Shown here piece after piece: positions 46,297 to 63,399 of a stretch of 64,000 bases of DNA. This stretch comes from a virus (taxonomy: Duplodnaviria > Caudoviricetes): positions 3,257 through 67,256 of the IMG/VR virus record IMGVR_UViG_3300026541_000034. The stretch is one strand, 5' to 3'. Positions within the stretch are counted from its first letter, which is position 1. Each line of letters opens with the position of its first letter. The position numbers and the translations under genes are program-made. The notes below the pieces were generated by a model. It ran no database searches and was not told the origin of the DNA. It worked only from the letters and a program-made list of their open reading frames with translations.

Positions 46297-46545
46297 CACT
46301 TGGGCGCACTTGGGCGCAGAATCGACGGTTGCGCCCAAGAGGATTACTTGGGCGCACCTTGGGCGTTCACATTCCGTTCACCGCACATAATAAGGGTTTG
46401 TCCAGCCGCATCAACACCTTGAAAAGCCGCAAGAAACCATATAGTACAACGGTTACTTAATGGGGCGTAGCGGCTAAGTATCATCCGAATTCTTCTGTAC
46501 TTTCAATGACTTGAAGACCATCGCTTGGGCGCATGTTGGGCGCAT
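46297..46545. other. attP region with integrase arm-type repeats
   Basis: Seven TTGGGCG(CA) copies: 46297, 46307, 46330 (inverted), 46346, 46358, 46524, 46535. Confidence 0.75.
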
Positions 46546-47740
46546 ACAGGTTTTTGGCGCTCTTTTGATTGAGGGTTTTCATGATCAAATCCGTCGCATC
46601 CCTGGCATTTACCAAATGGTTAGGCGAGAAGCTTTCATACCATTCCTCGGTGGTGCGATGATCGGGATCTGTGTGCCCCATCCACGCAGCGCGCTCCTCT
46701 CTCGACACCGGCATTCCTTGCAATGATCTTGTCCGTGTCGCCATATAATGGCGCAGCGTATACGGCACGAATTCCGGCATTCCGACTTTGGCCGTGATCT
46801 TTTTGAAGGTCTTATTGTTGATCGTTATGATCGCGCGCCTTCCATAAAAAATAGGGCGGTCCACGTCCCAGTCGAGATACCAGCCGCGCAGATTATCGGT
46901 CAGTCTTATCTTCGGGCGGATCTTTTTTGTCTGCACCCGTCCAGGCGGATTCAGGTCGATAATGCCGCGCTCAAAATCAACCTGGTTGTTGATGCTGAGT
47001 TCTATGTTTGCTTCCGGACGCGCCCACGTATTCAGCGCCTGAATGACAAAGCGGAAAATGTGCTCATGCTCGATGGCGTTGATGAATTTTACCAACTGGC
47101 TGTCGTTCGGTATCCACTCACGCCGGCTTGGCCGGGGCTGGTTGGTGACTTTGCAAATCAAATCTATTTTGCAATGAATGATGTGCGTGCGGTTCAAGAT
47201 CACAACCTCACGCTCCTCGCCCTTGCTGTCATAAATCAGGTAGGGATCGATGGCGCGCGCCATGGCCGCTTTGATGGTTGATAGATAGGTGTAGATCGTT
47301 TTTGCCTTGAAGCCATGTTCATCGCTGCACCACTTCATGAAGGCGCGCTGTCTGGCCAGGGTAAAGTCGGCAACCTTGGGCGCTGCCGACACGGTCTTTA
47401 GGTATTCATTGACCAGAGTGCAGGCGCGACCGGCTGCGCCGCTGGCGCGGATGCCGTTGCCGTGGCTGTCCATGTAGAATTTTAGAACTTGCGCCATCAA
47501 AACCGCTTCCGGCGATAGCGGCTCATTCTCTGGCTCGCCGTAAACAATGGCAATAAGAAGGTCTTTGGCTTCTTCTAGGTCACTGGTTCCAAGAGACGCA
47601 CGGCGCGTGCGTCTAAGTCCGGGGTCATACCAATAACGGTAGAAGTTTTCCGAGCCTTCCTTTTGTTCGAGCCATTGACCTTTAACTTCGAGGATACGTC
47701 CATTTTCCTGGACTGGCCCGCCAGTTCGTTTTTTCCGCAT
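46481..47740 (-). CDS. int: Tyrosine recombinase / integrase
   Basis: WARPEA (R), YTLRHYMATR, MGH and terminal Y motifs. Confidence 0.92.
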   Translation of the reverse strand: MRKKRTGGPVQENGRILEVKGQWLEQKEGSENFYRYWYDPGLRRTRRASLGTSDLEEAKDLLIAIVYGEPENEPLSPEAVLMAQVLKFYMDSHGNGIRASGAAGRACTLVNEYLKTVSAAPKVADFTLARQRAFMKWCSDEHGFKAKTIYTYLSTIKAAMARAIDPYLIYDSKGEEREVVILNRTHIIHCKIDLICKVTNQPRPSRREWIPNDSQLVKFINAIEHEHIFRFVIQALNTWARPEANIELSINNQVDFERGIIDLNPPGRVQTKKIRPKIRLTDNLRGWYLDWDVDRPIFYGRRAIITINNKTFKKITAKVGMPEFVPYTLRHYMATRTRSLQGMPVSREERAAWMGHTDPDHRTTEEWYESFSPNHLVNARDATDLIMKTLNQKSAKNLYAPNMRPSDGLQVIESTEEFG

Positions 47741-52956: not shown

Positions 52957-53000
52957 CGTGTGCAGGGAGGTAGCCTCTCAGATGGATAGCCCACCTAAGT

Positions 53001-53053
53001 TGCAATTACCTTTTTAAACAAACATTTTCTCCAAATCAAGCAAATTCTTTCCT
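53001..53053. promoter_or_regulatory. Putative left operators (AGCAA-N5-TTGCT-like)
   Basis: AGCAAATTCTTTCCT at 53039; TGCAATTACCTTTTT at 53001. Confidence 0.45.
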
Positions 53054-53093
53054 GAAACAGGAAAATGGAGAAAATCGTTGGATTACTTGGGGT

Positions 53094-53846
53094 TTAGAAG
53101 GACTTGAAAGCAAAAACAACACGCCCAATAACGTGTCCCTGCATATCTTTGTCGATAATATAGGAATCAAAAGCGGAATTTAAGGGAGTTAAACGAATCA
53201 CTTTGTTTCTGCCATCTTGAGAAACGACAGAGAACTGGCGGCATACAAGACGTGGCATCTTGTTCATGTGCGCAAAAACGTAACAGCCATTCGTTAGCTC
53301 AGCAGTTGGATCGTAAAGGACACGTATTCCATATGGAAGATCTGGAGCCATGGACTCATCTTCCATGGGAATAATTTGTCCGTATCTTATGCCATGTCCC
53401 TTCATGACCTGTCCTTCTTCTAAAAGAAGCTTCGTTTCAAGCTCTGTGAGGGGAGGGAACGCTATATTGAAAAGGCTATTTACGCTGAACGAATCACTTG
53501 TAAATTCCACCTCAGAATTCACAATACCACTTTGAGTAGAGTCTGGCTCTATAAATGCTCCATTTGTTTGGTCTGGGCACAGAGCAGCAACAAGTTCCTG
53601 TGGATGAAACAGGCCGAGGATCTCATGTTTTTGAATTGGCGGCGTGCCGTTCCCAAGAAAAGCGCGGATTAATTGCTCTTCGATTCGCGGGGGCAGGTAA
53701 TCAGATGAGAATTTTAATTCGTAATACCGGTAGTTGCTATCCAGCTTAAAGCCGCCTTTCTCGGCGACTTCTCTTTGTGTGATTTGACGACTTCTCCGCA
53801 AGTTTTTAAGGCGTGTGCGTGCGAACGTTTCCGAATCTTTTTGCAT
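53094..53846 (-). CDS. CI-like repressor (XRE HTH plus S24 peptidase-like domain)
   Basis: RLKNLRRSRQITQREVA..YRYYE; DESMAP..G.RVLYDP..LTPLNSAF. Confidence 0.88.
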   Translation of the reverse strand: MQKDSETFARTRLKNLRRSRQITQREVAEKGGFKLDSNYRYYELKFSSDYLPPRIEEQLIRAFLGNGTPPIQKHEILGLFHPQELVAALCPDQTNGAFIEPDSTQSGIVNSEVEFTSDSFSVNSLFNIAFPPLTELETKLLLEEGQVMKGHGIRYGQIIPMEDESMAPDLPYGIRVLYDPTAELTNGCYVFAHMNKMPRLVCRQFSVVSQDGRNKVIRLTPLNSAFDSYIIDKDMQGHVIGRVVFAFKSF

Positions 53847-53862
53847 TTTCAAATTATCGCAT

Positions 53863-53948
53863 AGCAAAAACATTCCGACAATGAAAAAATAATTGCTAAA
53901 ACGGGAAAGCTGTGTTACTCGTTTTCCTCTAATAGCAAAAAGATTGCT
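53863..53948. promoter_or_regulatory. Putative right operators (AGCAA-N5-TTGCT)
   Basis: AGCAAAAACATTCCG 53863, GAAAAAATAATTGCT 53883, AGCAAAAAGATTGCT 53934. Confidence 0.55.
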
Positions 53949-54089
53949 GATGCAATGCGGCCAGTCGCCGTTGTATTGAATCGTCCGCGCGGCTTGGCCC
54001 CCCGCCCGCTGCCGCGCTGATGGCCCCAGACCGCCACCGCTTAAATGGTCTGGGGCACCATTTTGTAACCCCAGTATGAGGAAAGTCCC

Positions 54090-54458
54090 TTGGCAAAAAG
54101 TGTAAAGAAAATCCGCCCCGGTCATAACAGCCCGCATGACGCTGACAAAGTTCAGAACGTTCTCGATCTCGTTGCAAACTTGAACGGTCAAATTGAGACT
54201 GAAAAGGCAGCATATATGTTGGCCTGCAAAGCTATACGAAGCGATATCAAAGTCGTTTTCCGCGATGCTAAGAACGAGGGCCTTCCCGTGAAAGCTCTGA
54301 AGAATATCGTCAAGGATCGCGCCGCTGAGAAGGCTGCCGAGCGGCGCCGTACTGATTTGGATACCCCGGATTTGGAAAGCTATGATCAGATCGTATTCAT
54401 GCTCGGCGAGCTTGCCGGGACACCGTTAGGAGACTCCGCGCTCGCCGCCGCTGCATAG
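54090..54458 (+). CDS. GapR/DUF2312-like nucleoid-associated protein
   Basis: GHNS motif; IRSDIKVVFRDAKNEGLPVKALKNIVK.R matches the DUF2312 pattern DIKDVYAEAK..G.D.K.L..I. Confidence 0.65.
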   Translation: MAKSVKKIRPGHNSPHDADKVQNVLDLVANLNGQIETEKAAYMLACKAIRSDIKVVFRDAKNEGLPVKALKNIVKDRAAEKAAERRRTDLDTPDLESYDQIVFMLGELAGTPLGDSALAAAA

Positions 54459-54465
54459 GTGCAGC

Positions 54466-54981
54466 GTGAAAATTCTCGCATTAGATCTTGCGACCCAACT
54501 CGGCTGGGCTGTCGGCACTCCTGCCGATGGCCCTGAGTGGGGTACGCACAGGTTGCCAAAGACCGGTGAAGATATCGGTAAGTTTCTCGCTGTCTATGAT
54601 AAATGGCTCATCAGAATGTTGGATTGGTATGCGCCAGATTTGGTAGTCGTCGAAAAACCTATCAATATGACCAATGCAAGATCCACTATTTGGGTCCGGC
54701 TGAAGCTGAACGGCCTTGTCTCGCATACGGAATTCAGATGTCACACCAGTGGCTTTGAATGCGCATGGGCTGACAATTGGGATTGGAAGCGGCACTTCGT
54801 TGGCTACACATTCGGCAAGAAGACCAAGCCATATCCGGTTTTCCAAGCCTGCAAATATCGTGGCTGGAAAGCAGTCACGACGGATGAAGCCGATGCATTA
54901 GGCATCTGGGATTATTCAATCTGCAATCTCATCCCTGAAAAAGCTCATGAATCTACGCCTCTATTCGCGGGGGCAACATGA
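54466..54981 (+). CDS. RuvC-like Holliday junction resolvase
   Basis: ILALDLAT..GWA, VVVEKP, DEADALG. Confidence 0.85.
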   Translation: MKILALDLATQLGWAVGTPADGPEWGTHRLPKTGEDIGKFLAVYDKWLIRMLDWYAPDLVVVEKPINMTNARSTIWVRLKLNGLVSHTEFRCHTSGFECAWADNWDWKRHFVGYTFGKKTKPYPVFQACKYRGWKAVTTDEADALGIWDYSICNLIPEKAHESTPLFAGAT

Positions 54982-55481
54982 ATTGGACCAGCGAATGTGA
55001 CGGTCTTCTCATCCAGCGTTGGGATGAAAATGTATTGAGCGAAGACATTGCCAGAGAATTGGACGTGCCATCAAAAGTAGTTAAGCAACGGGTGCTTACA
55101 TTACGTAGACGCGGGGTTTCTCTTAAGAAAAAAAGAAGCAATCTTGTTGGTACAGTTAGAAAAGAGCACGACGAAGAGCTTAAGATAGAAGTATTGCATA
55201 GAGTTAAATTAGGTTTTACTCGCGCGAAAATAGCTCAAAGCCTATCTCTGACAATAGGACAAGTTGTAGGAATTGTATATCGCGATAAAGAAGAAAAAGA
55301 AAGCGATGAGACTTTTCCTATTAAAGGAGGAAATGGGTTACGTGGATTCTTCCAGGGCCAATACCGCATTACCGAGGATGTGATGTTGGAATACCCTAGT
55401 TTGGACCCTCGCGACACAACTGGACGTTTTTTCAACGATCCGCTTCCTGGAAGGTCGGCGTTAGATCAAAGAGGGTATTGA
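54978..55481 (+). CDS. GcrA-like regulator with duplicated HTH
   Basis: MNWT...L...W......IAREL resembles the GcrA N-terminus; second HTH IAQSL..T.GQVVGIVYR. Confidence 0.6.
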   Translation: MNWTSECDGLLIQRWDENVLSEDIARELDVPSKVVKQRVLTLRRRGVSLKKKRSNLVGTVRKEHDEELKIEVLHRVKLGFTRAKIAQSLSLTIGQVVGIVYRDKEEKESDETFPIKGGNGLRGFFQGQYRITEDVMLEYPSLDPRDTTGRFFNDPLPGRSALDQRGY

Positions 55482-56920
55482 TGGCTTTAGAGGCGGTAGA
55501 TGACTTCGGTGAGTATCAGGTAGAGCCTCATAATATTGATGCTGAACAAGCGCTGATAGGCGCCATTATGATAACCAATGAGGCATATCAAATTGTCTCG
55601 ACATTCCTAGACGCGGAACATTTTTTTGAACCTTTGCACATGCGAATCTATGAAGCGTGCGCGGATTTAATTGCCAAAGGCGGTGTTGCTGATCCTATTA
55701 CTCTCAAGTCGTACATGGACGGCGAGCCCAAGATCCAAGGCCCTGATATAGACTATACCGTTGCCGGATATCTTGCACACCTCATGGCCGAAGCATGTAC
55801 CACAATTTCAGCCAAGGGATATGGCCAGACAATTCATGATCTGGCTCTGCGGCGCGGGTTGGCCATCATTGGCGAGGAGATGACCCGAACGGCTTACCAC
55901 TCGCCGATAGACTATTCTGTTGCTGAACAAATCAGTCAAGTCGAAAACGATCTTTATGAACTTTCGTCGCCGCTCACAGACCGGCGCCAGGCGTCGCATA
56001 TCTCCTCTGCGGTAGCCGAAGCGCTCGACGTGGCCAATAGAGCTTATCAGCGAGACGGCAGTCTTGCCGGTCTGCCTACCGGCTTGGCGGACCTTGATAG
56101 TAAGCTCGGCGGCCTCGCGGCTTCGGATTTGATCATAATTGCAGGCCGTCCCAGCATGGCGAAGACGAGCCTTGCGACCAATATCGCATATTCCAATGCT
56201 TTGAGCCAAGTGCCGGTGGGGTTCTTCTCGCTGGAAATGTCGAGCGTGCAATTGGCGAATAGAATAATCGCGCAAATCTCTAAGATTTCATCAGAAAAGA
56301 TTCGTCGCGGCGAAATCACAGAAGATCAATTCAGGCAATTGAGCAGCGCCGGTAACACCCTGCAGCGCCTGCCTTTGACGATAGATGAGACCGGCGGTCT
56401 ATCGATCGGCGAACTGGCGGCGCGCGCCCGGCGCATGCAAAAACGCCAAGGCATACAGCTACTGATTATCGACTATTTGCAGCTCATGGTGGGCTCTAAA
56501 AAGTCCAGCTCTCGCGTCCATGAAATCACTGAGATTACGATGGGGCTGAAGGCGCTGGCGAAGGAACTCAACATCCCTGTCATTGCCATTTCGCAGCTCT
56601 CGCGCCAGGTCGAGACGCGCGCCAATAAACGGCCTCAGTTGGCAGACTTGAGAGACTCTGGATCGATTGAGCAAGACGCCGATGTCGTCCTCTTTCTCTA
56701 CCGCGAAGAATATTATTTGGAACGAGAGAAACCCCTCGTTGACGACATTGCAAAGTATTCTGAATGGCAAGGCAAGATGGATAAACATCACGCCCTTGCC
56801 GAGATCATTATCGGCAAACAGCGCCACGGGCCAACGGGCATGGTGCAAGCCAGGTTCAATGCCGAGCTGACCCAGTTCAGCACTCTGTCTTACCGCGATC
56901 ATCCAGGAGGACCGCTGTGA
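55478..56920 (+). CDS. dnaB: Replicative DNA helicase DnaB
   Basis: PHNIDAEQALIG, TGLADLD, GRPSMAKT, IDYLQL, QLSRQVE, LRDSGSIEQDAD, KQRHGP. Confidence 0.95.
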   Translation: MMALEAVDDFGEYQVEPHNIDAEQALIGAIMITNEAYQIVSTFLDAEHFFEPLHMRIYEACADLIAKGGVADPITLKSYMDGEPKIQGPDIDYTVAGYLAHLMAEACTTISAKGYGQTIHDLALRRGLAIIGEEMTRTAYHSPIDYSVAEQISQVENDLYELSSPLTDRRQASHISSAVAEALDVANRAYQRDGSLAGLPTGLADLDSKLGGLAASDLIIIAGRPSMAKTSLATNIAYSNALSQVPVGFFSLEMSSVQLANRIIAQISKISSEKIRRGEITEDQFRQLSSAGNTLQRLPLTIDETGGLSIGELAARARRMQKRQGIQLLIIDYLQLMVGSKKSSSRVHEITEITMGLKALAKELNIPVIAISQLSRQVETRANKRPQLADLRDSGSIEQDADVVLFLYREEYYLEREKPLVDDIAKYSEWQGKMDKHHALAEIIIGKQRHGPTGMVQARFNAELTQFSTLSYRDHPGGPL

Positions 56921-57876
56921 GCAAAGCGCCGGCCATGCCGATATTTATCGACGCTTATCTGAGCGATACGACCCACTTATCGACGGAAGAGCATGGAGCT
57001 TATTTATTGCTCCTCATGGCCATGTGGCGGCGCAATGGAAGCGTGGCGGACGACGACCGGGACATCGCCCGCATGGTCGGTCTTGGCTTGGCAAGATGGA
57101 AAAAAATCAAGGAAAGATTGCGGCCTCTTTTGACTTTTGAGCAGAGTCAAATTACACAAAAACGACTAAAAAAAGAATGGAATTACGTCACCGACTACAA
57201 AGAAAAACAGCGAAAAAATGCGCAAAAAAGATGGGCAAAACCCAAGGGAATTAAGGATTTAGCAGATGCCACCGCATATGCCAAACCCCATGCCAAAACG
57301 CAATCTGGCATATGCACCCATACCCAAGAAGTAAAAGAAGAAGACTCAGAGTATGCCGATAGACCGAGTCCTATAACTCTTTTTGATGGTGAGGAAACAT
57401 TGCGCAAATCGAAAAATTTGCGCGGCCCCACGTTCGAAGAATTTTGGAAAAGGTATCCAAGGAAAAGGGGCAAGCAGTCAGCGGCCAAATCCTGGAAACT
57501 TCTTTCCGCTGAAAACCGTCAAGCGGCGATCGATGCCCTGCCAGCTTACGAGGCGGCCTGCAAAGAATCCGACACGGACCTGCAGCACGGCAGCACCTAC
57601 CTGAGCAAACAGACCTGGAAGGATTTTGAGGCCGAGGCCACGACCGAATGGCACGAGCAGCCAGAGGCATGGACGTTGCCCGCGGATTATTTTCTCGCCC
57701 AGCTCCAGGACAAGCAGCCAAACGGAAAATGGTTTCCGAAAAAGCTTGGGCGTCTCGCCGCGTGGTTCGGCTATCCGCCGTCACGCCAGGCACTGGAAGA
57801 ATATTACGGAGCGCAGAAGCTCCAAGAAATTGCAACGAAATTTGGATTTAGCATTGAGGTAGCCGGGCACGCTTGA
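56917..57876 (+). CDS. Replication initiator, DUF1376/YdaU family
   Basis: MP.FIDAYLSDT.HLSTEEHGAYLLLL; FEEFWKRYPRK.GK. Confidence 0.88.
   Translation: MSKAPAMPIFIDAYLSDTTHLSTEEHGAYLLLLMAMWRRNGSVADDDRDIARMVGLGLARWKKIKERLRPLLTFEQSQITQKRLKKEWNYVTDYKEKQRKNAQKRWAKPKGIKDLADATAYAKPHAKTQSGICTHTQEVKEEDSEYADRPSPITLFDGEETLRKSKNLRGPTFEEFWKRYPRKRGKQSAAKSWKLLSAENRQAAIDALPAYEAACKESDTDLQHGSTYLSKQTWKDFEAEATTEWHEQPEAWTLPADYFLAQLQDKQPNGKWFPKKLGRLAAWFGYPPSRQALEEYYGAQKLQEIATKFGFSIEVAGHA
57266..57311. repeat. Iteron-like repeats inside the initiator gene (probable origin)
   Basis: ATGCCA at 57266, 57278 and 57290 (12-bp period) plus inverted TGGCAT at 57306. Confidence 0.6.
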
Positions 57877-57887
57877 AACCATGAAAA

Positions 57888-58427
57888 TTGAGGAGAGAGA
57901 CAATGAATTTCGTATTGCTGAGAACACAGCTAGGTCAATTTGCGACGCGCATATTTGACTGGTGGATGAGACCGGACGAGGACGATGATTATTCGTACTA
58001 TGAACCTGATGATGACGCGCAATTCCGGGCGCCGCCGCCGTTGCCGATGACCAAGCCTGTGGTGGTTGAAGCCGAACATTCTCCAACGAGTGATTTGATA
58101 CTGGTGCTCAAAGCGACCAGGGATGATTTGGACGAGAATTTGGATGAGCCAATTACGATTGATGACTTTGCCATGGCTGAGATCCGGCGTCTTATTATTG
58201 AGTGTTGTCCACACCAGATTTCTGCAAGGTTTTCCTTCCTCGCCCTTTGGGATGAGGTTGTCGATCCGGTCGAGCGCTGGGTCAACCTGAACCAGGTTGC
58301 TACCATGCTGATGACGATTGAGATGTATTTCTGGCCAGGGAATCCTCGGGTGCGTGTACTGCGCTTAGCCTGTGAAGCGCGAGCCCGCATGGCTGAGAAA
58401 ATGTTGCGGTTGGAGGTAGCGGCATGA
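57888..58427 (+). CDS. Hypothetical protein
   Basis: 179-aa ORF; start possibly 57903. Confidence 0.65.
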   Translation: MRRETMNFVLLRTQLGQFATRIFDWWMRPDEDDDYSYYEPDDDAQFRAPPPLPMTKPVVVEAEHSPTSDLILVLKATRDDLDENLDEPITIDDFAMAEIRRLIIECCPHQISARFSFLALWDEVVDPVERWVNLNQVATMLMTIEMYFWPGNPRVRVLRLACEARARMAEKMLRLEVAA

Positions 58428-58876
58428 CTATGGACAGTACCCCAAAAGAACCGTTTGAAGATACGGCTGAAGAGCGCAGCGTGAACTTTGTGAAAGAGCT
58501 TGAATGGCTCATCAACAAATATTCCATGGAGAATGGATCGGACACGCCAGATTTTATTCTCGCTGAATATCTGTTTTCCTGCCTGCAAGCTTTCAATTCC
58601 ACAGTGAACCGTCGCAGCGCATGGTTTGGCATCAAGCATTTCCCGACAAGGATTGAGAACGCCATTGATGATGAAGATGAAAAGAAAACGGCAGACGAAT
58701 GGCTCGCGCATCCTGATTATGCGGGTCTCCAAATTCTTGATCCAGATGGCTGGGATCGTCAGAATTTTGAAGAATCTTGGGCTGAACCTATTACCCAATC
58801 TGAGTTCGTTCTGCGGATGTGCCAGTCAACATGTGACTTGGGGAAAACCTTTGATGAAAAAAAGTTGATCTCATAA
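58424..58876 (+). CDS. Two-domain hypothetical phage protein
   Basis: ENGSDTPDFILAEYL module followed by ILDPDGWDR..EF module. Confidence 0.75.
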   Translation: MTMDSTPKEPFEDTAEERSVNFVKELEWLINKYSMENGSDTPDFILAEYLFSCLQAFNSTVNRRSAWFGIKHFPTRIENAIDDEDEKKTADEWLAHPDYAGLQILDPDGWDRQNFEESWAEPITQSEFVLRMCQSTCDLGKTFDEKKLIS

Positions 58877-58913
58877 AGGGATCGTATTTACAAAAAGAAA
58901 GTAAGAAAATCTC

Positions 58914-59414
58914 ATGATTGAATGGTATTTGGTGGTCGCAGATCACTTAGGAATGAATACAGCGGAGGCGTCTTTGACCGCGCTTGGCTGCCAGGTCTAC
59001 TACCCTCGGGAGAAGATCATGGTCACACGGCTCAATAAGCGGGTGAAGGTTGAGCGCGGTCTTTTGTATAAATACATGTTCGTCGGCAGAGAGACGGGCA
59101 TAAGCTTTTATGATATCGGCGAAGCTAGAGGTGTCCAAAGATTGCTTGATGATATGGATGGGCGCCCGGCGAAAATAGCCGCTGATATAGTCGAGCGCTT
59201 CAGGCGTAATGAGCGCTACGGGAAATATGATTACACGACCCGTGACAGGCGCAAGGGGCTGCTACCGGTCGGTTCCGAGGTGAGAGTGCTTGACGGGCAG
59301 TTTGAAGGCTATACGGGCATTGTCCGGCGTTCTGGCGGCACAGACAAAATCAGAGTGTTCTTGGCCGAGAAATTCGTCGTTCACATTCCGATAGACAGCG
59401 TCGCTTACGTTTAA
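58914..59414 (+). CDS. NusG/RfaH-family antiterminator
   Basis: NGN domain (WY.V..YYP..L...YMFV) plus KOW motif (VGSEVRVLDGQFEGYTG). Confidence 0.88.
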   Translation: MIEWYLVVADHLGMNTAEASLTALGCQVYYPREKIMVTRLNKRVKVERGLLYKYMFVGRETGISFYDIGEARGVQRLLDDMDGRPAKIAADIVERFRRNERYGKYDYTTRDRRKGLLPVGSEVRVLDGQFEGYTGIVRRSGGTDKIRVFLAEKFVVHIPIDSVAYV

Positions 59415-59548
59415 GCTCTCTTCTTGGTTTTCTTTTTTGTTCCGGGCCGGACCATCGACAGCGCGATCGCTACGGCCTGTCTTTGTGGCTTGCCCTCGGC
59501 TTTCAGTTTCCTGATTTTGTTTGAAACTTTTTGGTTTCTCGCGGTCAT
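59411..59548 (-). CDS. Small basic protein, DUF6496-like
   Basis: KAEGKPQRQAVAIALS motif; below ORF-track cutoff. Confidence 0.65.
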   Translation of the reverse strand: MTARNQKVSNKIRKLKAEGKPQRQAVAIALSMVRPGTKKKTKKRA

Positions 59549-59586
59549 AGCAAAACCTTTCGCCTTTTTCTGTTTATAACAGGAAA

Positions 59587-59601
59587 TTAATGAATTATTA
59601 A
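59587..59601. promoter_or_regulatory. CtrA-box match upstream of the OMP gene
   Basis: TTAA-TGAATTA-TTAA. Confidence 0.45.
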
Positions 59602-59667
59602 TGTTTACATTGGAACAACCTTAATTGCAATGAGGTAGCGCTTTAAGCAATTAAAAAGGGGTTTCTA

Positions 59668-60624
59668 ATGTTGAAAAGAAGTTGTTTCGCATTAGCGTTT
59701 ATAGGCGCATTTGGGCTCGCTGGGATATCGGACGTAAAGGCTGATCCTACATCTACCTGGGATGGTGTTTATTTTGGTGTAGGTGGTGGTGCGGGTTTGC
59801 TTAGCGGTTTGTCAGTTAACGCGAACAGATCGAAGGATTTGATGGAAAGGAATTGTTACAGAATAGATAGAGACGGGAAATGTGAGGACCCAGAAGATGA
59901 GTGGTGGAAAATAGCTGATTGGTGGTTTGATAATGGGCTCAGCAACGGAGAAGATGAGGATTACAGTTATTCAAAATCTATCAATGATATAAATGATGAT
60001 TGGCGGGTCTTTGGCACAATTCAGGTTGGTGTCGATAAACAAATTGGTCAGAAGTTTGTCATTGGTGCCTTTGCAGATTATGATTTTTATGCAGATTCTG
60101 ATGGTAGCTTTGCGATGCCTTGGAATATAAGCCAGCGGGATTGGGCATTAACCGGCTCGCTTAGTGGCAATGTTGAGCTGGAAAAAGTATGGAGTGTTGG
60201 CGGGCGCATTGGAGCGTTGCTTACTCCGAAAATGTTGCTTTATGGGATGGGCGGCTATACACAAGCAACCCTTGATGGAAATGTGGTTTTGGTAGCGGGT
60301 GATAGCAGGGGCACCGATACTTTGTCCCTTAGTTTCCCTGATGAGCTTCGTGGCTACTTTGTCGGAGTTGGTGGTGAATACAAATTCGAAAATAATATGT
60401 CGTTCAAAGTCGAATATCGTTATTCAAAGTTTGATAGTGATAGCGCTTCAGTTTCGAATAATTTCGTAACCTATGATCTTCATGATGAATCTAGCGGCTG
60501 GCAACACAAAAGCATTTTCGATCGTGATTTGGGTATTGGTATTGATCCTGAATTGCATTCAATTCGCGCGGTTCTTGCGTACAGGTTCGGGGCTAGTGAC
60601 GAAGGAATGCAGCCTTTGAAATAA
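59668..60624 (+). CDS. Outer-membrane beta-barrel, Omp25/RopB family, with large loop insertion
   Basis: Signal peptide, WDGVYFGVGGG, GGRIGALL, GYFVGVGGEY, VEYRYS, AYRF, C-terminal PLK. Confidence 0.9.
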   Translation: MLKRSCFALAFIGAFGLAGISDVKADPTSTWDGVYFGVGGGAGLLSGLSVNANRSKDLMERNCYRIDRDGKCEDPEDEWWKIADWWFDNGLSNGEDEDYSYSKSINDINDDWRVFGTIQVGVDKQIGQKFVIGAFADYDFYADSDGSFAMPWNISQRDWALTGSLSGNVELEKVWSVGGRIGALLTPKMLLYGMGGYTQATLDGNVVLVAGDSRGTDTLSLSFPDELRGYFVGVGGEYKFENNMSFKVEYRYSKFDSDSASVSNNFVTYDLHDESSGWQHKSIFDRDLGIGIDPELHSIRAVLAYRFGASDEGMQPLK

Positions 60625-60804
60625 CAAGAAAAGGAGGGGGGTAGTTGATAGATACGTATTGTCACAACTACACCCCTTTACTTTACTCCTGTGCGAGTCT
60701 ATATCTTCGCTCGTGGGCTGCAAAGCCTATGAAAAATACAAGGGGAGTGAGTACTCAGTATAACAACAACCCCATTGTTAAAATAAAAGCTGCACAAGCC
60801 AACT

Positions 60805-60852
60805 AGCGCCGCTTCTCCGGCCCCCCGCTCTGGAATGAAGCGGCGCTTTTTT
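60805..60852 (+). terminator. Intrinsic terminator between OMP and mucR
   Basis: AGCGCCGCTTC..GAAGCGGCGCT followed by TTTTT. Confidence 0.7.
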
Positions 60853-61279
60853 ATCGCCGAGTTCCAAGACCCATCTTCTTCGCAAGGTTAGATCTGGTCG
60901 TAGCATAGTTGGGAGCCACCATGGGATAGTCGTAGGGCAAGCTCCACTTCTCTCTATATTCATCTGGTGTGAGGCTAAAGTGCGTTCGTATATGCCGCTT
61001 TAGAGATTTGAACTTCTTGCCATCTTCAAGGCAGATGATGAAGTCCGGAGTGATAGATTTTTTCACAGAGACAGCAGGTATAAGATCGGGGTTTATGGGT
61101 TTTGCCTCATTGTGAGCGGCTTGGCATACAGCGTTCGATACCTCCAAAATTAGGTTTGGGAGATCAGTCATTGTAACCGTATTATTTTTAACGTAGGCGG
61201 CAACAATATCCGTCGTCAATTCGATGTTATTATCTGCCTCTTTCCCTACTGGCAACTCACCGTTCGTTTCATTTGTCAT
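60851..61279 (-). CDS. mucR: MucR/Ros family zinc-finger regulator
   Basis: LTTDIVAAYV.NN, PAVSVKKSITPD.IICLEDGKKFKSLKRH, EYREKW.LP.DYPMVAPNY..RS.LAKKMGLG. Confidence 0.97.
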   Translation of the reverse strand: MTNETNGELPVGKEADNNIELTTDIVAAYVKNNTVTMTDLPNLILEVSNAVCQAAHNEAKPINPDLIPAVSVKKSITPDFIICLEDGKKFKSLKRHIRTHFSLTPDEYREKWSLPYDYPMVAPNYATTRSNLAKKMGLGTRR

Positions 61280-61520
61280 TTATTCGTCCCTTTAGAAAGT
61301 AGCCGGGTTATTTTTCCAAGCTTACCAAGTGATTGGTCAGTTGCCTTACTCAGGACAACAACCGTAACGGGAAATATAACCAGAATATGCTTCTGTTGTA
61401 AAGAGAAGTTGGGAATACTGATATTAATGTGGATAAGTTGTTGATTGTTCAGCTATAAATTATTTTTAATTTGAGATGAAAGAAAATTGTTGACAGGCTA
61501 TATCTCGTATGATATTCAGC

Positions 61521-61675
61521 GGGGATTGCTTGCGCAAACGTAGAGGTTTGTCCAGACGCGCAAGGTCTGGACCGCCTATTTCAAGAAGTGCTAGATTCCA
61601 GACGGAATCTCGGCATTTTTGTCATGTCTGGGGCAAGCAAAGAAAAACCGGCCAATTTGAGGTTGGCCGGTCATA
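61521..61675 (+). ncRNA. Candidate structured non-coding RNA
   Basis: TTGACA at 61490; outer stem TTGCTTGC/GCAAGCAA encloses hairpins GTCCAGAC/GTCTGGAC and AGATTCC/GGAATCT; terminal hairpin 61647-61671. Confidence 0.45.
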
Positions 61676-61678
61676 AGT

Positions 61679-61963
61679 TTAGAAGAATTTCATTCCTCCA
61701 TTTCCGTTGGTTTTTGGTTGAATGAACGTTTTTTCGTTCTCTTGCTTTTGGGCTGCTCTGACTTTGTCTTGTTGTAGGTGGTGGTTCTCAAAGTCGTTAA
61801 CAGCCAGTGCCGATGCCACCATATAGACGATCTGTATTACCAACAATTGGTCTTTAAGTTTTTCAACATCCTTTCCAACCATTTCAGCTAAGTGATGGAC
61901 AGACTCTGCTCTTTGGCGATATTTTTCCAAAGCAGCTTCTGCCTTTTTTATACGCTCACACAT
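61679..61963 (-). CDS. Hypothetical coiled-coil protein
   Basis: 94-aa ORF, SD AGGAG. Confidence 0.6.
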   Translation of the reverse strand: MCERIKKAEAALEKYRQRAESVHHLAEMVGKDVEKLKDQLLVIQIVYMVASALAVNDFENHHLQQDKVRAAQKQENEKTFIQPKTNGNGGMKFF

Positions 61964-62117
61964 GTCCTTTCTCCTATTGGAGTCGTTGGTGATCTATATA
62001 TAAGGCATCGTTTTTGATTTTGCAATGCAATACCTATCACACATTATCACGTTTGATCACATTTCCGTGAAAACCCCTTCCCTTGTATTTTCCTAGTCTT
62101 CTCATTATGGTTATGGG

Positions 62118-62330
62118 ATGGGAAAGCATAGAGGACATCAGGGCGGCAGACGCCCCTTGGACGGTGAGACGATGACTGAACAGCTCGTCTTTCGTGTTCC
62201 CGTAAAGTTGGCGCAGCAAATAGATGAGCGGTGTGATGCGCGCGGGGAGCCGGAACGCGCTGCGATGATCAGATATCTATTGAAGCTTGGAATTCAAACT
62301 GATATTCGCGATTTCAAACTCGCCGACTGA
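62118..62330 (+). CDS. Ribbon-helix-helix (CopG/Arc-like) DNA-binding protein
   Basis: GGRRPL..QLVFRVP..L..IDE..RAAMIRYLL. Confidence 0.75.
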   Translation: MGKHRGHQGGRRPLDGETMTEQLVFRVPVKLAQQIDERCDARGEPERAAMIRYLLKLGIQTDIRDFKLAD

Positions 62331-62438
62331 CCTTTTTCTAATTTGCAAATAACTTTTGATTTTCGTCGCCCATATAGGAAATCGAAAGTTATCTCAACCT
62401 CTAGCTGCTTCCCTCTGGTAGCGCTGGGGTTTTGAGCA

Positions 62439-62478
62439 GGGTCACTGAATGGCCAGATTCAGTGACCCATTTTATTTC
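62439..62478 (+). terminator. Strong intrinsic terminator ahead of the structural-looking operon
   Basis: GGGTCACTGAAT-N6-ATTCAGTGACCC followed by ATTTTATTT. Confidence 0.75.
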
Positions 62479-62539
62479 TCCTCCCCCAAAAATTGACCGG
62501 TTCCTCCCTCTTCCGGCTGCTTTATGAAAGAGCCTAGCT

Positions 62540-62860
62540 ATGACCAAAATCGCAACGGACTCTCGCGGTCGCCCGGTCCAGGCGCTTCGCCTTGGGTCAA
62601 CTACTGTTACGGAGTTCAGCGATAGCTCCGCTCTGGCGACCGTGGCCAACAACAGCAATGACACGAGAATATTTCAGCTCGTCGCGACGGCACCTCTTCA
62701 TTTTGTAATAGCCCCTACACCGGTCGCGACAATAGGTGACGTGTACCTACCGGCAGAGGTCATCTTGTTCATTGAGATGGGGCCAAAGGACAATATCGCA
62801 TACATCAAAAATATTGCGGCTGACCTGGATGGCACTGCATATCTTACGGAGGGCTTGTGA
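62540..62860 (+). CDS. Small beta-rich, probably structural protein
   Basis: DSRGRPVQALR..GTAYLTE; typical of virion accessory proteins. Confidence 0.6.
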   Translation: MTKIATDSRGRPVQALRLGSTTVTEFSDSSALATVANNSNDTRIFQLVATAPLHFVIAPTPVATIGDVYLPAEVILFIEMGPKDNIAYIKNIAADLDGTAYLTEGL

Positions 62861-63399
62861 TGGCCGCTATACACACTCAGGGCGCTGCATCAGCGCTTGC
62901 ACTTCTTGATGCGGCTAGCGATCCTGAACGGACAAAAGATGCGATAGCTCGCATTGAGGAAAGGGAAGCCAGCGCCAGAGAGGCCGCAAAGACTGCGCGG
63001 GCGGAAATCACTGAACTGCAAACTATGCGCAAGGATCTGGACAGTCACGCAAAAGCGATGGAGGCGGCGCAGTCCAAATCAGAAGCGGATCTTGTCGCCA
63101 GGCAAGAGGCTATGGCCAAGTCGGAAGAGTCAATTAAGCGGCGAGACACAACGCTGAAAAATGATCGCGCCACTCTGCGAACGGAGCAAGCGACTCATAA
63201 GCAGACAAGTCGCATTGATATGGATCGACTTAAAAATCTGGAAATCTCTCTCAGTGGCAGAGAAAAGGGATTGAAAAAAGAGCAGACGAAACTAGAGGAG
63301 CAAGCGGCAAGTTTACAGGGCGCCATGGTTGCTGCGAACCTTGTCAAGGCTCAATACGAAGCCAAGGCGGCGAAATTAACAGCGGCGCTCGTGGACTAG
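62857..63399 (+). CDS. Coiled-coil protein
   Basis: Ala/Glu/Lys heptad-rich. Confidence 0.65.
   Translation: MMAAIHTQGAASALALLDAASDPERTKDAIARIEEREASAREAAKTARAEITELQTMRKDLDSHAKAMEAAQSKSEADLVARQEAMAKSEESIKRRDTTLKNDRATLRTEQATHKQTSRIDMDRLKNLEISLSGREKGLKKEQTKLEEQAASLQGAMVAANLVKAQYEAKAAKLTAALVD

Follow-up and report, generated by a model that had tools for sequence, protein, structure and literature searches.

Does a single phage carry, as one coordinated set, copies of the regulators with which alphaproteobacteria pace their own cell cycle? The question is raised by a stretch of 64,000 nucleotides from the IMG/VR virus record IMGVR_UViG_3300026541_000034 (hereafter the window; bases 3257-67256 of the 67,256-bp record; all positions below are counted from the first base of the window). 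A sequence-only reading of this DNA had recognized homologs of GapR, GcrA and MucR within about 7 kb, together with a CtrA-box match, and had suggested that the combination is a kit reprogramming the cell-cycle state of the host for replication or lysogeny. A check of open reading frames (ORFs) and motifs found all four features exactly in place, and the three ORFs were confirmed. On closer analysis the four features are the following.

54090-54458, plus strand: diverged GapR-family protein (PF10073), 122 amino acids (aa), TTG start, first gene of a rightward early operon
54978-55481, plus strand: DNA-binding protein of 167 aa with two helix-turn-helix (HTH) repeats (AlphaFold2 [AF2] model and remote sequence matches) and the C-terminal peptide DTRDxTGRFFxDPLPGRSALDQR; overlaps the stop of the RuvC-like gene and the start of dnaB
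59587-59601, plus strand: TTAA-N7-TTAA match, TTAATGAATTATTAA, in the AT-rich spacer upstream of an outer-membrane protein gene; one match against 0.92 expected
60851-61279, minus strand: full-length MucR/Ros protein, 142 aa (PF05443, 160.3 bits)

The record ends in 117-bp direct terminal repeats and is rated 100% complete by CheckV. By its gene content the phage is temperate, encoding a tyrosine integrase (46481-47740; phrog_1) and an S24-type repressor, and its host probably belongs to the Hyphomicrobiales. The reading that we favor takes the region for the part of a complete temperate phage genome that serves immunity and early replication, joined by an accessory island; as a full explanation, inclusive of the protein roles proposed below, we regard it as rather probable. 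Because the supposed third regulator is not GcrA, an alphaproteobacterial phage carrying GapR and MucR amounts to a fairly ordinary case of a known phage habit, and adds one more complete genome to the growing number of alphaproteobacterial phages that encode versions of host nucleoid proteins.

The GapR-like protein and the early replication operon

At the level of the protein family, the assignment of the first ORF to GapR stands. The GapR-like protein scored 29.3 bits against PF10073 (cut-off, 22.6), GapR chains in the PDB matched it at E ~0.008, and hhalign aligned its residues 17-80 with positions 8-60 of six canonical GapRs, drawn from host-like genomes and from other phages, at 94.8% and E 5.4e-8. 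An AF2 model placed helices at residues 15-62, 67-91 and 98-108, with helices 1-3 following the order seen in GapR and a short additional helix at the C-terminus. When this model was submitted to a VIA fold search, the top row was free Caulobacter GapR (6jyk_A; Z 5.7, root-mean-square deviation 5.1, 75 of 77 residues, 21% identity), which was also the sole row to cover all three helices; a Foldseek search of the PDB returned nothing significant. The protein shares with Caulobacter GapR (CCNA_03428; PF10073/DUF2312/UPF0335) its Pfam family and, according to the model, possibly its three-helix architecture, and the invariant columns of canonical GapR that it retains include the basic residues K39, K54, K68 and R77. 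It differs from canonical GapR, to which it is about 33% identical (36% in the hhalign alignment), in a basic N-terminal extension, a longer C-terminus and an 11-residue insertion that the alignment places within the long helix 1; other phage GapRs score 100-118 bits on PF10073, compared to its 29. At the level of orthology the GapR call did not hold, the score against the NCBIfam equivalog NF052541 being 21.1 bits for a cut-off of 140. Since it falls this far under the equivalog cut-off, the protein is, by profile comparison, a diverged member of the GapR family and not an ortholog or equivalog. An 80-aa gene call in the source record was set aside: between the GapR-like gene and two relatives, differences over the N-terminal 42 codons that this call omits lie mostly at third positions, a bias that favors the 122-aa, TTG-initiated form as the real one.

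The gene opens a tightly packed operon on the plus strand (54090-59414) in which it is followed by genes for a RuvC-like resolvase, the two-HTH protein, DnaB, a DUF1376 protein, two proteins without an assigned function and a NusG/RfaH-like protein, with stop and start codons overlapping at three junctions (54978-54981, 55478-55481 and 56917-56920). On its other side, 216 bp separate it from a divergently oriented repressor gene, and this spacer contains no ORF of at least 40 aa. The order repressor (on the minus strand), GapR-like, RuvC-like, two-HTH and DnaB was kept in three related metagenome contigs, in whose repressor homologs (257-259 aa) PF00717 occupies the same place. The remaining features of this arm are listed below.

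53094-53873, minus strand: CI/LexA-type repressor with S24 peptidase domain (phrog_4 transcriptional repressor, E 3.4e-8), starting at 53846 or 53873
53861-53874 and 53932-53945, no strand assigned: candidate operators, two copies of ATAGCAAAAA[C/G]ATT, 71 bp apart, from a repeat search; operator role putative
54466-54981, plus strand: RuvC-like Holliday junction resolvase (phrog_159, E 3.4e-9)
55478-56920, plus strand: DnaB-type replicative helicase (PF03796, E 3.2e-98; PF00772, E 9.9e-22)
56917-57876, plus strand: DUF1376 primosomal or replication-initiation protein (PF07120, E 9.9e-15; phrog_9327, E 2.9e-36)
58914-59414, plus strand: NusG/RfaH-like antiterminator, closing the early operon (PF02357, 29.2 bits; phrog_6386, E 6.9e-15; NCBIfam UpxY/RfaH, E 5e-15)

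GapR in such company is not peculiar to this phage. Searching 50,697 GenBank phage records, we found canonical GapR in 152, nearly all of them phages of Alphaproteobacteria and most of the genes unnamed or labeled DUF2312/UPF0335, in agreement with the earlier remark that individual phage homologs are known. In Azospirillum phage Cd, a canonical GapR gene lies after a Holliday junction resolvase and before a DUF1376 primosomal gene, and in Bradyrhizobium phage ppBeUSDA76-2 it abuts DUF1376; the module is therefore a recurrent replication/recombination arrangement. Like the GapRs of Azospirillum phage Cd (gp10) and Mesorhizobium phage Cp1R7A-A1, the GapR-like protein is encoded in an early operon with the resolvase and DUF1376, and unlike other phage GapRs it is the product of the first gene opposite the repressor. 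Thus, phage GapR appears to be part of a recurrent module (GapR, resolvase and DUF1376) rather than a device for taking over the host cell cycle.

According to published work (PMC13408042), the targets of GapR are topoisomerases and DNA that is AT-rich or overtwisted. The homologies, gene order, overlaps, synteny and statistics given here are observed; every activity and state of expression proposed for the proteins is inferred. The GapR-like protein would most likely act on the DNA of the phage itself, as suggested by its conserved place in the operon and by the fit with the published roles of GapR; it may form a GapR-type helical clamp on AT-rich or overtwisted DNA, and this clamp could relieve topological strain while the phage replicates, recombines and transcribes its early genes.

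Several observations speak against this account. In addition to the failed equivalog test, the PF10073 match is limited to positions 20-56 of the 72-position profile, that is, to its central half, and the VIA score of 5.7 is tied with those of generic coiled coils (Z 5.4-5.6). Because of the 11-residue insertion and the extra termini, the geometry of the clamp, and with it the activity, may differ from those of GapR. The operator and promoter calls consist solely of consensus matches, and the related metagenome contigs, at 6 kb or less, are too short to bear on whether relatives carry MucR. Finally, the GapR-like gene holds the spot that cro, located opposite the repressor, has in lambdoid phages, a place that would also suit a regulatory role.

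The last of these points invites a rival explanation in which the GapR-like protein is a Cro-type early regulator, its diverged GapR fold binding the divergent control region and opposing the repressor instead of serving as a general DNA-topology factor. The uninterrupted divergent arrangement, repeated in the three relatives, would agree with such a function, as would the candidate operator repeats within the 216-bp spacer and the strong divergence of the protein from canonical GapR, with its added termini. However, canonical GapR in other temperate phages sits off the cro position, in the early replication/recombination operon by the resolvase or DUF1376; GapR has no known sequence-specific binding; and the GapR-like protein keeps basic residues conserved in GapR. 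We therefore consider a Cro-type function unlikely and retain a role in DNA topology as the preferred one.

Two further observations concern the control region and the operon. A GC-rich hairpin at 54024-54055 (CCCCAGACC, a 14-nt loop and GGTCTGGGG, then CACCATTTT) lies just 5' of the ribosome-binding site of the GapR-like gene, where it may serve the early operon as an attenuator or leader structure. No iteron-like array was found between 53700 and 62400.

MucR and the AT-rich accessory island

As judged from its sequence, the identity of the third ORF as MucR is beyond doubt, and the original call holds in full. The match to PF05443 (cut-off, 25.4 bits) spans positions 3-123 of the 123-position profile, and the solved Ros domain 2JSP was matched at E 2.8e-31. 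The predicted N-terminal oligomerization region lies within the profile match, and the zinc-finger ligand positions C83, D86, H96 and H100 follow the Ros pattern. The protein thus resembles Agrobacterium tumefaciens Ros (2JSP) and the MucRs of Brucella, Sinorhizobium and Caulobacter over its full length, oligomerization region and zinc finger included. It also shares the ligand pattern C-x2-D-x9-H-x3-H with its nearest chromosomal relatives, C-D-H-H ligands being found in 73 of the 80 nearest chromosomal homologs in a sample biased by the CLEDGKKF pattern used in the search. Identity to chromosomal MucRs of Hyphomicrobiales and Stappiaceae ranged from 57 to 69%, and in a phylogenetic tree the phage protein formed a long branch nearest the chromosomal MucRs of Hyphomicrobiales, with no supported sister; the tree did not resolve a host clade. 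It differs from chromosomal MucR/Ros in being phage-borne, in its long branch, and in its situation next to a gene for an outer-membrane protein, within an accessory island rich in AT. Viral MucRs at large were more variable than chromosomal ones at the fourth ligand (H, D, A, Q, N, R, K, Y, L, S, E or T) and sat on longer branches than chromosomal copies.

The gene lies on the opposite strand, 5.4 kb away from the genes for the GapR-like and two-HTH proteins, and is accompanied by the following features.

61373-61402, minus strand: sigma70-like promoter match TTTACA-18-TATATT (10/12), ~95 nt upstream of the MucR start; a consensus match, joint best as one of three at 10/12 in 53000-63000
59668-60624, plus strand: outer-membrane beta-barrel protein, accessory gene (PF13505, 36.7 bits; GC content 43.7% versus 48.8% for the window)

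MucR would thus be a separately transcribed accessory gene with its own candidate promoter. Because it lies on the other strand, behind a promoter-like site and within an AT-rich island, the three supposed regulators do not make up one unit; the GapR-like and two-HTH proteins belong to the early operon, and the notion of a single kit fails at this point.

The island itself (59415-61963) has a GC content of 41-45%, versus 48.8% in the window, and holds the outer-membrane protein gene, MucR and a minus-strand ORF of 94 aa. It is immediately preceded, as are the late genes, by the NusG/RfaH/UpxY-like gene. A highly basic minus-strand ORF of 45 aa is found at 59411-59548, and a 70-aa ORF at 62118-62330, ribbon-helix-helix-like by eye, lies between the MucR island and the next block of plus-strand genes.

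Plasmids and phages of gamma-proteobacteria carry stealth or competitor proteins of the H-NS family, such as Sfh of R27. Phage MucR is comparable to these in that a mobile element bears its own copy of the xenogeneic silencer of the host lineage, and differs from them in belonging to the zinc-finger MucR family and not to H-NS. MucR has been described as an H-NS-like silencer of AT-rich DNA (PMC9410896, PMC10746212, PMC9779718), and according to a review of the Ros/MucR family its role in connection with phage-derived genes has not been studied (PMC9779718). The phage MucR would be transcribed apart from the early operon, perhaps in lysogenic cells; it would most likely act as an additional H-NS-like silencer on AT-rich DNA, its own island possibly included, and either add to, or mix with, the MucR of the host. 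Phage MucR is rare and functionally unexplored, although already annotated elsewhere (Erythrobacter phage vB_EliS_R6L gp61 and Mesorhizobium phage Cp1R7A-A1). Since the copy described here is full-length, has a candidate promoter of its own and lies beside a surface-protein gene, it would be a practical subject for experiments on whether such a silencer supplements or interferes.

The two-HTH protein and the GcrA assignment

Failure in a hidden Markov model test had been named beforehand as grounds for giving up the GcrA-like call, and this is what was found. PF07750, the GcrA family (gathering score, 26.9 bits), did not match the ORF at 54978-55481 even at E<=10, nor was any match to it obtained in six frames over the whole phage; in three host-like genomes the same search scored GcrA at 170-191 bits, and gp222 of phage phiCbK is detectable by this profile (PMC3556154). 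Similarity to GcrA was confined to its N-terminal HTH of ~45 residues, to which each repeat of the two-HTH protein bears a weak likeness (hhalign, 74%, E 2.9e-5 over the first 40 columns; BLASTP of repeats 1 and 2 against real GcrAs, E 3e-4 and 0.22, respectively). Nothing aligned past column 40. The protein lacks the GcrA linker and the C-terminal domain through which GcrA binds and recruits sigma70 to promoters (Haakonsen 2015, PMC4647560), and the pattern C-x-W-P-x-G-D-P ... F-x-F-C-G ... Y-C-x-x-H, conserved in the C-terminal part of real GcrAs, is missing from the ORF. Further differences are the presence of two HTHs where GcrA has one, the other C-terminal peptide, and the lack of a Pfam match. 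Thus, with no PF07750 match and no sigma70-binding domain, the profile and alignment results indicate that the ORF is not GcrA, and the call is a misidentification.

What the protein does resemble is HTH proteins in general. Its AF2 model shows three-helix bundles at residues 3-44 and 66-110 and a disordered tail. The fold matches were generic HTHs with Z up to 7.8 (Lrp/AsnC, Myb, sigma region 4 and small terminase), and Foldseek against the PDB returned nothing significant. The best 50 VIA rows did not include GcrA, which by itself does not speak against a GcrA-like fold. The remote sequence matches are multi-HTH proteins that fit HTH families of many kinds, and the N-terminal ~46-60 positions of PF07750 are just one of these. 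In two of them (P0013 and P0031), a MucR-type zinc-finger segment is fused to many tandem GcrA-N/Myb-like HTH repeats.

Nor did the DNA motifs connected with GcrA and CtrA point to host cell-cycle control. The CtrA-box match at 59587 is present as reported, but its number equals chance, 64 of 100 shuffled sequences containing at least one match, and regulation through this box was rejected. GANTC, for which enrichment statistics had been proposed as a check, turned out to be depleted (175 sites observed versus 294 +/- 15 expected, ~0.6 of expectation), with a maximum of 8 sites per kb and no arrays; no PF01555 match indicative of a CcrM-type methylase was found in the phage. Epigenetic control through GANTC and GcrA was rejected on these three counts. 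Near its left end, the window contains several paired GAATC-N4-GATTC sites, or the reverse (258-271, 382-395 and 863-876), which probably belong to stem-loop elements.

The most distinctive part of the two-HTH protein is its tail. In its wider form, [EV]IPxDTR[DS][LI]T[GA]RxFGDP[LIM]PGRSALD[QR]R, the pattern corresponds to positions 55350-55478 of the window and is predicted to be disordered. It is common to about half of the remote matches, many of them small phage HTH proteins, where it stands behind unrelated HTH heads, and the genes of the tail-bearing proteins lie near DnaB, PolB, RecA or DnaA_C in early or replication regions of phages. The tail family was present in 3 of 151 genomes of the order to which one comparison genome (G001) belongs, and a word search with the tail by itself returned only four close homologs. 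No Pfam or PHROG family covers the peptide, and a literature search returned no paper on it, only an unrelated one on PE_PGRS. Phage-borne GapR and MucR being already known, the conserved tail is possibly the one new item at this locus and the sole element of it that appears undescribed.

The two-HTH protein would accordingly be a DNA-binding protein specific to phages and produced along with DnaB, its invariant tail docking onto some partner. A bolder proposal is that the tail defines an undescribed family of phage early proteins, in which it would be a portable docking motif and tether diverse DNA-binding heads to a single conserved partner (for example RNA polymerase/sigma70, the replicative helicase or another part of the replisome), a logic like that of GcrA without homology to it; we put this forward as a speculation that has only a slight chance of being right. 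A related alternative makes of the two-HTH protein a functional analogue of GcrA, with GcrA-N-like HTHs reading the DNA and the tail replacing the C-terminal domain in contacting RNA polymerase or sigma70. The weak likeness of both repeats to the GcrA N-terminal domain is consistent with this, 17 of the 51 remote matches also fit the first ~46-60 positions of PF07750, the nearest Atlas clusters include viral GcrA-domain proteins (with scores under the trust level), and a conserved disordered peptide is what one would expect of a docking motif. On the other hand, the repeats match Myb, HTH_23, sigma70 region 4 and AsnC-type HTHs equally well or better, and there is no GANTC signal. A true GcrA gene is present separately in phage contigs that encode tail-bearing proteins, an indication that the latter do something else, and translational coupling of the two-HTH gene to dnaB points to replication. 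Function as a GcrA analogue thus seems improbable to us, and a phage-specific DNA-binding protein with a docking tail remains the preferred description.

Co-occurrence in other phages and the cell-cycle proposal

MucR was encountered in 30 IMG/VR contigs and in 6 of the 50,697 GenBank phage records (one of the six appears to be chromosomal), and GcrA in 32 GenBank phage records, mostly phiCbK-like, as had been noted for phiCbK itself; neither GapR nor MucR was found in phiCbK. Among 32 other MucR-bearing viral records, canonical GapR was present in five (including Mesorhizobium phage Cp1R7A-A1) and canonical GcrA in four, these being raw counts without a baseline rate. Pairs of the regulators recur, but none of the 32 records had all three, and none matched the two-HTH profile.

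These counts bear on the proposal from which the analysis started, namely that a coordinated kit of three proteins, with GcrA-like activation of S-phase genes, stimulation of topoisomerases by GapR and the S-to-G1 switch of MucR, reprograms the host cell cycle for phage replication or lysogeny. The likely relatives of the host do own GcrA, GapR and MucR, the GcrA of phiCbK has been suggested to drive replication of the host (PMC3556154), and the recurring pairs show that sets of such regulators are found in alphaproteobacterial phages. Against this, the GcrA call fails together with its sigma70-binding domain, the CtrA box is a chance match, GANTC is depleted and devoid of arrays in a phage with no detected CcrM-type methylase, the genes are divided between transcription units and strands, and the triple was not seen in any other MucR-bearing viral record. 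Nothing found here lends support to reprogramming of the host cell cycle, and we hold the kit to be improbable; an immunity and early-replication arm with a separate MucR island is the account that we prefer.

Close relatives of the phage were absent from the GenBank phages and IMG/VR contigs searched. Within GenBank phages, positions 53000-62000 gave no megablast match, and neither the GapR-like nor the two-HTH protein gave a tblastn match. Used as queries, the GapR-like and NusG-like proteins found no match in viral contigs, the two-HTH protein found no relatives in genome, viral or metagenome contigs, and the GapR-like protein matched a single 1.3-kb fragment in metagenomes. In six GenBank phages whose recorded hosts are Microcystis or Synechococcus, there are genes for GapR or GcrA that are 45-72% identical to Pseudovibrio proteins, and the true hosts of these six phages may be co-cultured Alphaproteobacteria.

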